NCBI RefSeq assembly: GCF_003790525.1
Contig: NZ_CP033635.1
Origin: Escherichia coli
Lineage (GTDB): Bacteria; Pseudomonadota; Gammaproteobacteria; Enterobacterales; Enterobacteriaceae
Reading direction: 5' to 3' (one strand)
Length of the DNA: 64,000 bases
Shown piece by piece: positions 18,516-19,886 of the stretch (position 1 is its first letter; each line of letters begins with the position of its first letter). The translations under genes were made by a program, and so were the position numbers. The notes under the pieces are model-generated. The model ran no database searches. It saw only the letters and a program-made list of their open reading frames with translations, and was not told the DNA's origin.

Positions 18516-19886
18516 TTAAAAGACTTTTACGCCATTTTGCTGTAAGCGTTCCTGTACCGTCTGAATATCTACCTGTGAAACGGTAGTGTTATTTTTAATG
18601 GCAATAGCAGCGGCAGTCCCTGCACCTTCTCCAGTGACAATACAACACCCCATATTACGGATTGTCGCATAGGCGAAATTATCTGCATCGATTGCCCGTC
18701 CGCAAACCAACAGGTTTTCAACTTGCTGCGGAATCATTACGCCATAAGGGATTTGAAAATAGTTCGCTTCAAGAGGTAATTTAAGATGACCATTTCCATC
18801 TATAAACTCAGGGAATACCCCTATTGAATCCGCATGACGTCCCTCATTACAAATATCATTTTCCGTAAGCTGGACTCGCCCAATAATATGTCTTGATTCT
18901 CTTGTTCCCACCGTCATACCGAAATTTTTTAATTGTGCCTGTTCAAATCCTGGCTGGAATTGACGCAACGCTTCAATCGCCTGCATGGCTTGCTTGCGGC
19001 CTTCTATTTCTGCACGCGTCAGGTCAAAAACATCCGTACAATCGACGGCAGGGATGCTGACAACGTTCAAGTAATTCGCATCACCATACTCGGTGACCGT
19101 ACTCCAGGAACCGCCTAACGTCACATCTTTTGGAATAATTCCTGCCGACTTTCCTTTCGCAAAGACTTTACCCAGATAAGGGCTAAACATATCGCGACAA
19201 GATTCATGAACATCATAAGACCAGTTTTTATTTTCTTCATCCGCCCCCCAGTCTCCATATTTAGGTTCCGTGCTCTTAATATTTTGCATGAACGCGTTTT
19301 TATTTATATTTGCGCAACTAAAAACGGTTGTCATACACATTAGCTCTTCGCGTTCACGCTTAATAAATGGTGCTCCGGCAAACCATGCAATATCGGCATC
19401 GCCAGTACAGTCAATAATGACATTCGCCAAAATAGCCTGACGACCAGATTTACTCTCTGTTATTACGCCGAGTAAATTATTGCCCTGCTTAATAACATCA
19501 ACGGCGGTAATGTGTAGTACGCGGCGCACACCTGCCTGTTCAAGCATTGCATCCGCAACCAGTTTGAAACGCTCGGCGTTAATAGCCTGACTATTCGATT
19601 GCGGCTCAGGGCTGGACGCCCCCATTGATTTTGCCGTTTCTTCTATTTCGCGTGCCAGTCCACCTGACTCTACCGTATTTTCATGACGCCACCAGGCAAT
19701 TGACTCGACGCCAGCCGTTGTCATCATTCCGCCAAAACAACCGAAACGTTCAATCAGCATAGTAGCTGCGCCTTCACGAGCGGCACTCATTGCTGCGGCA
19801 ATACCCGATGGACCACCACCAACAACTAACACTTCCGTGGTTGCCAGTACAGGTATATTACGAGCGGGTTCCAGATAAAATTCCAT
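18516..19886 (-). CDS. FAD-dependent oxidoreductase (paralog 1)
   Basis: 456 aa; N-terminal dinucleotide-binding fold VLVVGGGPSGIAAAMSAAREGAATMLIERFGCFGG; roughly half the residues are identical to the ORF at 29055-30419 by eye. Confidence 0.7.
   Translation of the reverse strand: MEFYLEPARNIPVLATTEVLVVGGGPSGIAAAMSAAREGAATMLIERFGCFGGMMTTAGVESIAWWRHENTVESGGLAREIEETAKSMGASSPEPQSNSQAINAERFKLVADAMLEQAGVRRVLHITAVDVIKQGNNLLGVITESKSGRQAILANVIIDCTGDADIAWFAGAPFIKREREELMCMTTVFSCANINKNAFMQNIKSTEPKYGDWGADEENKNWSYDVHESCRDMFSPYLGKVFAKGKSAGIIPKDVTLGGSWSTVTEYGDANYLNVVSIPAVDCTDVFDLTRAEIEGRKQAMQAIEALRQFQPGFEQAQLKNFGMTVGTRESRHIIGRVQLTENDICNEGRHADSIGVFPEFIDGNGHLKLPLEANYFQIPYGVMIPQQVENLLVCGRAIDADNFAYATIRNMGCCIVTGEGAGTAAAIAIKNNTTVSQVDIQTVQERLQQNGVKVF

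Follow-up and report, generated by a model that had tools for sequence, protein, structure and literature searches.

The closest described system to the genes treated here is GimA, a locus of extraintestinal pathogenic Escherichia coli (ExPEC). A citing paper gives Huang 2001 as its earliest description, and its four operons have been named ptnIPKC, cglDTEC, gcxKRCI, and ibeRAT (Homeier 2010, PMC2878320). One of its genes, ibeA, has been listed since the 1990s as an 'invasin' of meningitis-causing, avian-pathogenic, and Crohn's-associated E. coli, and a review of 2026 names neither a substrate nor an enzymatic function for IbeA. Here, we analyzed a 64,000-nt stretch of E. coli DNA (RefSeq assembly GCF_003790525.1, contig NZ_CP033635.1; hereafter, the window), for which a sequence-only reading had pointed out two paralogous genes for flavin adenine dinucleotide (FAD)-dependent oxidoreductases, at 18516–19886 and 29055–30419, each beside a different transporter gene. 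By sequence and position, we assign the two genes as ibeA and cglE of GimA, since GimA has been published as the region between hypT (yjiE, 16100–17011) and iraD (yjiD), and the gene set and order agree, with no difference from the ExPEC locus at the sequence level. Genes and island are already known; what is new here is that the duplication is old, and that each lineage retains its own transporter type. The open-access literature that we searched makes no mention of the clade structure of IbeA and CglE, of a conserved transporter pairing, or of marine GimA-like gene sets. Both lineages are genetically coupled to a glyoxylate funnel and/or a glycerol/dihydroxyacetone (DHA) funnel.

A further point of comparison is E. 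coli K-12 with its gldA, dhaKLM, dhaR, and gcl-hyi-glxR-glxK genes, of which GimA holds second copies that score above the equivalog or subfamily cut-offs of NCBIfam. To our knowledge, the clustering of glyoxylate and glycerol/DHA genes with two flavoenzyme–transporter pairs is not seen in K-12.

The two flavoenzymes of GimA

Positions 17000–32900 of the window are 100% identical to E. coli SMS-3-5 (NC_010498.1) across all 15,901 bases, and the RefSeq names in the matched region are ibeA, nhaC, dhaR, gcl, hyi, BCCT, glycerol dehydrogenase, and dhaKL. The ibeA gene (18516–19886, minus strand) encodes a soluble FAD-dependent oxidoreductase of 456 residues, 100% identical to WP_000397938.1 of SMS-3-5, and cglE (29055–30419, minus strand) encodes a soluble protein of 454 residues, annotated in RefSeq as "FAD-dependent oxidoreductase" (WP_000228119.1). 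The two genes belong to separate operons with 9 kb between them. The 16-kb stretch, ibeA alone, and cglE alone were each found in 246 of 5,426 complete E. coli genomes, as a single chromosomal copy. The G+C content is 40–50% over 17–37 kb of the window, compared to 55% in the flanks.

The proposed paralogy was borne out. IbeA and CglE align collinearly over their whole length (BLASTP: 231/452 identities, 51%; 71% positives; seven gap positions; E = 7e-171), and all motifs quoted in the sequence-only reading were recovered, i.e., GGGP(S/A)G, VGVES(I/F)AW(W/Y)RH, DCTGDADIA, FPEFIDG(N/S)G, QIPYG, and VENLLV(C/A)GR. The same applies to the gene layout, with ibeA followed by an NhaC-type gene, and an MFS gene followed by cglE, a 74-residue open reading frame (ORF) with two predicted spans, and a BCCT gene. 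Residues 18–448 of IbeA match the Pfam model PF12831 (FAD_oxidored) over its full length (positions 1–416 of 416; E = 1.3e-93), and precomputed annotation places CglE in PF12831 as well. The Rossmann beta-alpha-beta motif of IbeA starts at residue 17, with VVGGGPSG at residues 21–28. Among 15 aligned members, the C-terminal FAD motif TG(E/Q)(G/A)AG is invariant, as are a Cys-Cys pair within it (C414-C415, 15/15) and the charged residues K146, D282, D288, E293, R329, R332, E360, D363, R397, and R410. These charged residues would be compatible with an anionic or zwitterionic substrate, for which they are non-diagnostic. The fold is that of a soluble two-domain flavoprotein and, according to papers citing Paris 2024, IbeA is a homodimer that binds FAD. 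No hydrophobic 19-residue window (Kyte-Doolittle mean ≥ 1.6) was found in IbeA or CglE; a dedicated signal-peptide predictor was not used. IbeA and CglE are anciently diverged paralogues of one tight PF12831 subfamily, comprising soluble, cytoplasmic FAD enzymes with a single domain architecture.

The suggested kinship with sarcosine or opine oxidase subunits and HcnB, on the other hand, fell away. NCBIfam and PDB matches to sarcosine oxidase alpha, opine oxidase, HcnB, thioredoxin reductase, and lipoamide dehydrogenase are confined to the N-terminal Rossmann motif of about 50 residues. TIGR01372 (soxA) gives 28.5 and 34.3 bits over this part (cut-off 1164), and the match to PDB entry 2gag_A covers residues 7–65 only. 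The DAO family (PF01266) likewise matches IbeA at residues 19–50 only (E = 0.004). Members of that family, including ThiO, sarcosine oxidase beta, IdaA, opine dehydrogenase, and PbfB/C/D, release glyoxylate or aldehydes, but the IbeA family is a different Pfam family. Identity with PbfB/C/D was ruled out, as the Pbf enzymes are PF01266 proteins, and they were kept as a context clue. Geranylgeranyl reductase, FixC/ETF-quinone oxidoreductase, and PHBH-type monooxygenases and halogenases share 13–20% identity with IbeA at a template modelling (TM) score of ~0.49, with ~280–290 of 456 residues aligned, which leaves the substrate domain of IbeA unexplained. Isoprenoid or electron transfer flavoprotein (ETF) genes are not shared by the neighbourhoods of the IbeA family, except for ETF near the Tropicimonas homologue.

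Two clades, each with its own transporter

Homologue searches yielded thousands of proteins at E ≤ 1e-100. A neighbour-joining tree of 26 representatives, rooted with a distant PF12831 paralogue, splits an IbeA clade from a CglE clade, with 51–57% identity between the two. The IbeA clade comprises proteins from E. coli, Pluralibacter, Serratia, Photobacterium, and Vibrio jasicida with 68–85% identity to E. coli IbeA (68–79% in the loci examined), while the CglE clade comprises proteins from E. coli, Vibrio, Photobacterium, Pseudovibrio, Tropicimonas, Endozoicomonas, and three further genomes with 63–79% identity to E. coli CglE. Neighbourhoods were derived from Pfam-annotated contigs and from tblastn searches with the GimA proteins, covering five IbeA loci (E. 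coli, Serratia L087, Photobacterium L088, V. jasicida L008, and L097; L numbers denote loci) and 11 CglE loci.

All five IbeA orthologues adjoin a gene for an NhaC-family transporter and have gldA and dhaKLM within 10 kb; Gcl was not counted for this clade. The E. coli transporter is IbeT (17098–18501, minus strand; TIGR00931, 380 bits, cut-off 370), the start of which at 18501 is separated by 14 nt from the end of ibeA at 18516, and its orthologues in the four other loci are 60–73% identical. In Serratia and L097, dhaK-dhaL-dhaM-ibeA-nhaC lie on a single strand, and orthologues of the GimA transporter CglT (82–89% identity) adjoin gldA.

CglE orthologues, in turn, adjoin a BCCT gene in 10 of 11 loci (55–58% identity to E. 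coli CglC), and in nine loci besides E. coli the orthologue follows the BCCT gene. Gcl or a Gcl-like thiamine diphosphate (ThDP) enzyme is encoded within 10 kb in seven of the 11 loci, made up of E. coli gcl, four Gcl loci, and two Gcl-like loci. Identity to E. coli Gcl amounts to 74–83% in three of the four; in V. jasicida, only the start of a 580-residue thiamine pyrophosphate (TPP) enzyme is covered and identity was not computed. The Gcl-like enzymes are 41% identical and score 593–608 bits on NF008431, below its cut-off of 791. The genes gldA and dhaKLM occur within 10 kb in six of the 11 loci, and the same six have a DhaR-type regulator.

In E. coli, the corresponding funnel genes lie around the two flavoenzymes. 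The gcl-hyi-glxR-glxK genes (gcxCIRK; 22501–27157, plus strand), which lead from glyoxylate via glycerate to phosphoglycerate, were assigned by profile scores and RefSeq: Gcl (22501–24240) scores 1075.8 bits on NF008431 and 1054 bits on TIGR01504 (cut-off 711), and the glycerate kinase scores 548 bits on TIGR00045. The glycerol dehydrogenase CglD (31773–32855, minus strand) is of the GldA type (NF006941, 558 bits, cut-off 336), and dhaK-dhaL-dhaM/ptsP (ptnIPKC; 33181–37275, plus strand; RefSeq) encode a phosphoenolpyruvate (PEP)-dependent DHA kinase, represented in the orthologous loci by Dak1, Dak2, and a fused EIIA-HPr-EI protein. IbeR (20173–22107, minus strand; dhaR in RefSeq) is a DhaR-type regulator with a sigma-54-activator domain (NF008485, 986 bits, cut-off 551), and homologues with 41–47% identity are found in the Vibrio, Photobacterium, and L097 islands.

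Whole GimA-like gene sets were found in Vibrio, Photobacterium, and Pseudovibrio. In Pseudovibrio stylochi (L013), gcl-hyi-glxR-glycerate 2-kinase-gldA-dhaK-dhaL-dhaM, the gene of a third family member, and an MFS gene follow each other on one strand. As this gene set is conserved in marine Gamma- and Alphaproteobacteria, GimA is its enterobacterial version and not a virulence invention specific to E. coli.

Each module also occurs without the other. Within loci of 21 kb, Serratia L087 has the IbeA-NhaC pair only and Vibrio sp. VB16 (L091) the BCCT-CglE pair only, the latter surrounded by gldA, dhaKLM, gcl-hyi-glxR, and a regulator. IbeA and CglE are, therefore, not subunits of one heteromeric enzyme, an outcome that the sequence-only reading had named as fatal to its proposal. 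The look at the genome context of close homologs that it had suggested showed conserved partners in both clades (NhaC and BCCT), and the proposed pairing of enzyme and transporter for related substrates was partly supported by the two clades (5/5 and 10/11). The other option it offered, one compound class handled under different conditions, has become less likely, since long-separate clades with different transporter families speak for two different substrates. A closely related explanation is that the paralogues are redundant isoenzymes that use the same substrate under different conditions. Both are of the same family, 51% identical, located on the same island, and share a regulator gene; however, the clades stay separate across Gamma- and Alphaproteobacteria, their transporters belong to different superfamilies, and there are genomes with either one alone, so that we rate isoenzymes as very unlikely.

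The BCCT-family transporter CglC (27213–28754, minus strand) has CaiT, the L-carnitine/gamma-butyrobetaine antiporter, as its top specific model (NF002887, 391 bits), followed by 357 bits on TIGR00842. CglC and four orthologues all retain the CaiT residues W142, W147, W323, W324, and E111. We take these residues to be the substrate site, as in the CaiT and BetP structures, with the Trp box holding trimethylammonium or sulfonium head groups. While CglC shares Trp box and E111 with CaiT, it remains below the NF002887 cut-off of 541, is only 30% identical, and has Phe in place of M331. R262, which in the antiporter CaiT takes the place of the Na2 site, aligns with Asn in CglC, which has a conserved R/K two positions on.

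Several CglE loci contain additional genes. A distant PF12831 flavoprotein of 425–445 residues, here named FAD2, accompanies CglE in seven of the 11 loci (L091, at 11444–13109; L008; L088; L094; L041; L093; L098); it is 25–29% identical to IbeA and CglE and 66–94% conserved among the marine bacteria. In four of these seven loci, a TM1367-type cyclophilin-like protein was detected. Searches of both proteins against the PDB returned only the uncharacterised TM1367 and Rossmann-level matches. The two Gcl-like ThDP enzymes (L093, 4703–6385, minus strand; L098, 11713–13392, plus strand) have FAD2-BCCT-CglE as neighbours, along with genes for a TRAP transporter and an IclR regulator, and could be a carboligase or lyase for a different substrate.

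Probable transporter-coupled catabolism and its alternatives

The conserved pairing with transporters and funnels supports a catabolic role, while a dedicated invasin finds no support in it. We consider it probable, though by no means certain, that transporter-coupled oxidation feeds the glyoxylate and glycerol/DHA funnels. IbeA and CglE would each carry out a dedicated redox reaction on a small polar compound brought in by its own transporter, i.e., the NhaC-family carrier for IbeA and the BCCT carrier for CglE. Given the BCCT carrier, the substrate of CglE would most likely be a trimethylammonium-type zwitterion. The transporters would import the substrates, and the flavoenzymes would act on the transported compounds by oxidative cleavage next to a heteroatom. 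Putative fragments are glyoxylate, with its tighter link to the CglE clade, and a C3 unit at the level of glycerol or DHA, which is linked to all IbeA-clade loci. Glyoxylate would enter central metabolism via Gcl-Hyi-GlxR-GlxK and the C3 unit would be taken over by GldA and the PEP-dependent DHA kinase, with both funnels governed by the DhaR-type IbeR.

Several observations weigh against this catabolic model. NCBIfam models and solved structures give the subfamily no specificity, and biochemical activity has been reported for no member. In a survey of immediate neighbours with Pfam and NCBIfam, about 30 loci of the wider family were heterogeneous and had no single conserved partner; with neighbours varying in this way, the neighbourhood argument is strong for the two clades, but not for the whole family. 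Furthermore, the cgl operon of E. coli may be incomplete, because marine CglE modules usually have FAD2 and the cyclophilin-like protein, which are absent from E. coli. The E. coli window was also checked for remnants of FAD2 or the cyclophilin-like gene, and of a C-S lyase or class-V aminotransferase, and contains none. Finally, the published phenotypes of ibeA mutants (reduced invasion, sensitivity to H2O2, and less type 1 fimbriae) are not directly explained by catabolism.

The linkage to Gcl allows for a simpler explanation, in which the BCCT-CglE pair cleaves glycine betaine, dimethylglycine, or sarcosine at the alpha-carbon to glyoxylate and trimethylamine, dimethylamine, or methylamine, with the glycerol/DHA genes being independent. 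This would account for the linkage to Gcl, including the two loci that lack dha genes. However, an iminium cannot be formed by a flavin dehydrogenase where the nitrogen is quaternary, so that betaine would call for a hydroxylase mechanism, of which there is no sign here, and the linkage to gldA, dhaKLM, and DhaR (6/11 CglE loci and 5/5 IbeA loci) would be left unexplained. In E. coli, glycine betaine is considered a dead end of metabolism. We assign this explanation a low probability.

A more specific candidate for the substrate of the catabolic model is glyceryl-carboxyhydroxymethylcholine (GCC), the deacylated, water-soluble head group of the algal betaine lipid diacylglyceryl-carboxyhydroxymethylcholine (DGCC) and an acetal of glyoxylate with glycerol and choline. 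Arithmetically, its formula is the sum of glycerol, glyoxylate hydrate, and choline less two waters, and it is the only natural product known to us that unites a choline-type head group, glycerol, and glyoxylate. GCC was chosen as a candidate because transporter type, C3 funnel, and C2 funnel all match. Free GCC (C10H21NO6), in which the acetal carbon carries the carboxylate, occurs in Symbiodiniaceae and giant clams (PMC10362313). The BCCT would import GCC, possibly in exchange for choline, and CglE (together with FAD2 in marine bacteria) would oxidise either O-CH2 carbon flanking the acetal to a hemiacetal, which would collapse to glyoxylate, glycerol or glyceraldehyde, and choline or betaine aldehyde. 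The C2 part would be passed on to Gcl-Hyi-GlxR-GlxK and the C3 part to GldA-DhaKLM, and IbeA-NhaC would process a related compound yielding C3. The gene set is hosted by Vibrio, Photobacterium, Pseudovibrio, and Endozoicomonas that are associated with invertebrates or corals, which fits with such a substrate. A search of the full-text literature returned no description of a bacterial pathway for GCC or betaine-lipid head groups. That GimA and its marine counterparts form a catabolic island for GCC is, all in all, rather unlikely; if true, the 'invasin' IbeA would be a nutrient-catabolic enzyme.

The sensitivity of ibeA mutants to H2O2, which citing papers attribute to Flechard 2012, may instead hint at enzymes of oxidative stress or redox homeostasis, i.e., reductases directed at peroxides, thiols, or disulfides. 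The invariant C414-C415 pair in all 15 aligned members and the weak N-terminal matches to thioredoxin reductase and AhpF are in line with such a role. These matches, however, comprise the Rossmann motif only, and a second dinucleotide domain for NAD(P)H is missing. Moreover, tight linkage to specific transporters and gcl/dha modules would not be expected of a stress enzyme, and the H2O2 phenotype could also follow from an altered flavoenzyme or metabolic flux. We regard a redox function of this kind as improbable.

The established view is that IbeA is primarily a surface-exposed or secreted invasin/adhesin for vimentin, PSF, and Caspr1, with CglE as an unrelated metabolic paralogue. Abstracts and reviews state that ibeA mutants enter brain endothelial, intestinal, and placental cells less and that recombinant IbeA binds receptors. 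The protein itself argues for a different role: it has no hydrophobic segment or recognisable signal peptide, its Rossmann motif begins as early as residue 17, and it has a full-length flavoenzyme fold. In addition, orthologues with 68–76% identity reside in the same metabolic neighbourhood in Serratia, Photobacterium, and Vibrio. Type 1 fimbriae are also expressed less when ibeA or ibeT is inactivated (Cortes 2008), so that adhesion phenotypes could be indirect. As a primary function, we hold an invasin/adhesin to be unlikely; a moonlighting surface role beside the metabolic one is possible.

Wider family, further features of the locus, and significance

The wider family (~47–58% identity) extends to Chloroflexi, Desulfobacteraceae, roseobacters, Halieaceae, SAR86, Actinomycetes, and one metagenome-assembled genome (MAG) of Lokiarchaeota. 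A PhnW/AGXT-like class-V aminotransferase is encoded directly downstream of the family member in L002, L016, and L089. Other neighbours include Pot/PhnT-like or Opp/NikA-like ABC systems and an MttB-family methyltransferase, and the Desulfobacula locus has no transporter. In two Roseibium species (L011, 8870–9955; L012, 8858–9955), the family member directly follows AnmK (above cut-off) and a class-III aminotransferase. As MurNAc (N-acetylmuramic acid) is a lactyl ether, the AnmK linkage may be a clue that the family acts on ethers or alpha-substituted carboxylates. A Caulobacteraceae MAG (L032, 8003–12611) encodes on one strand a PbfD-type oxidase (TIGR03364), PhnX, an IbeA-family flavoenzyme, and an MFS protein, a gene order that links one family member to aminophosphonate catabolism. 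The Lokiarchaeota member (L019, 5847–7250), 47% identical to IbeA, is encoded on a contig of 205 kb assigned to that MAG; either an archaeon has acquired the gene horizontally or the contig was binned wrongly.

Within the cgl operon of the window, the MFS transporter gene cglT (30437–31705, minus strand) stops 17 nt short of the cglE ATG at 30419. CglT has weak matches to the PgtP and galactonate-transporter families (TIGR00881, 58 bits; TIGR00893, 50 bits), which are far below cut-off. For cglE and the BCCT gene, the mechanical ORF starts (TTG at 30449 and GTG at 28898) were replaced by the RefSeq starts at 30419 and 28754. The 74-residue ORF in between (28778–29002, minus strand) has two hydrophobic segments by Kyte-Doolittle and AGGAG 7 nt before its ATG; its status is uncertain. 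Strain GmF046 has it annotated as hypothetical protein WP_001204018.1, whereas SMS-3-5 has no annotation for it. The two versions differ by 3 nt, all non-synonymous, which for two lineages are too few substitutions to decide on selection; the 300-bp spacer is 99% identical between both strains and cglE ~95%. No counterpart was found in the marine loci, where the BCCT gene lies immediately before cglE. In GmF046, a B2-type E. coli (L095, 660–5894), the BCCT gene carries a frameshift and an IS1 element interrupts cglT. In some lineages, the cgl operon is undergoing decay, which agrees with the 'reductive evolution' described earlier for GimA (Homeier 2010, PMC2878320).

Regarding regulatory features, a scan for sigma-54 -24/-12 promoters (TGGCAC-N5-TTGCW, ≤ 2 mismatches) gave 42 matches in the window compared to 43 expected, and none in the ibeR-ibeA, ibeR-gcl, and cglD-dhaK intergenic regions. 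E. coli DhaR works with sigma-70. The genes cglD and cglT are 67 nt apart, and the gap contains a GC-rich hairpin with an 8-bp stem and T-runs on both sides (31741–31763), possibly an internal terminator or attenuator inside cglDTEC. A perfect inverted repeat with an 11-bp stem (GGCGCAGAGAG-CTGAAAGC-CTCTCTGCGCC; 29019–29048, minus strand) is located 6 nt past the cglE stop, with no T-run behind it, and may form a hairpin that serves RNA stabilisation or processing between cglE and the genes downstream of it. Outside GimA, a 5.2-kb gene annotated as inverse autotransporter IatD (7514–12754, plus strand) lies ~3.3 kb upstream of hypT (16100), with kptA, yjiH, yjiG, and iadA in between. Low G+C content (38–41%) is also found in the first 6 kb and at 52–56 kb of the window.

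Taken together, the evidence favours a metabolic primary role for IbeA. As marine bacteria that are not pathogens have the gene set as well, metabolism (or moonlighting) is a more likely source of the virulence phenotypes than a dedicated adhesin. The candidate substrate classes for IbeA and CglE, namely BCCT-type zwitterions giving glyoxylate and compounds giving DHA or glycerol, now make the question of their function more testable. If the substrate turned out to be a diet- or host-derived quaternary amine, this would matter for how well B2/F-group E. coli thrive in the gut, and might also matter for methylamine production.

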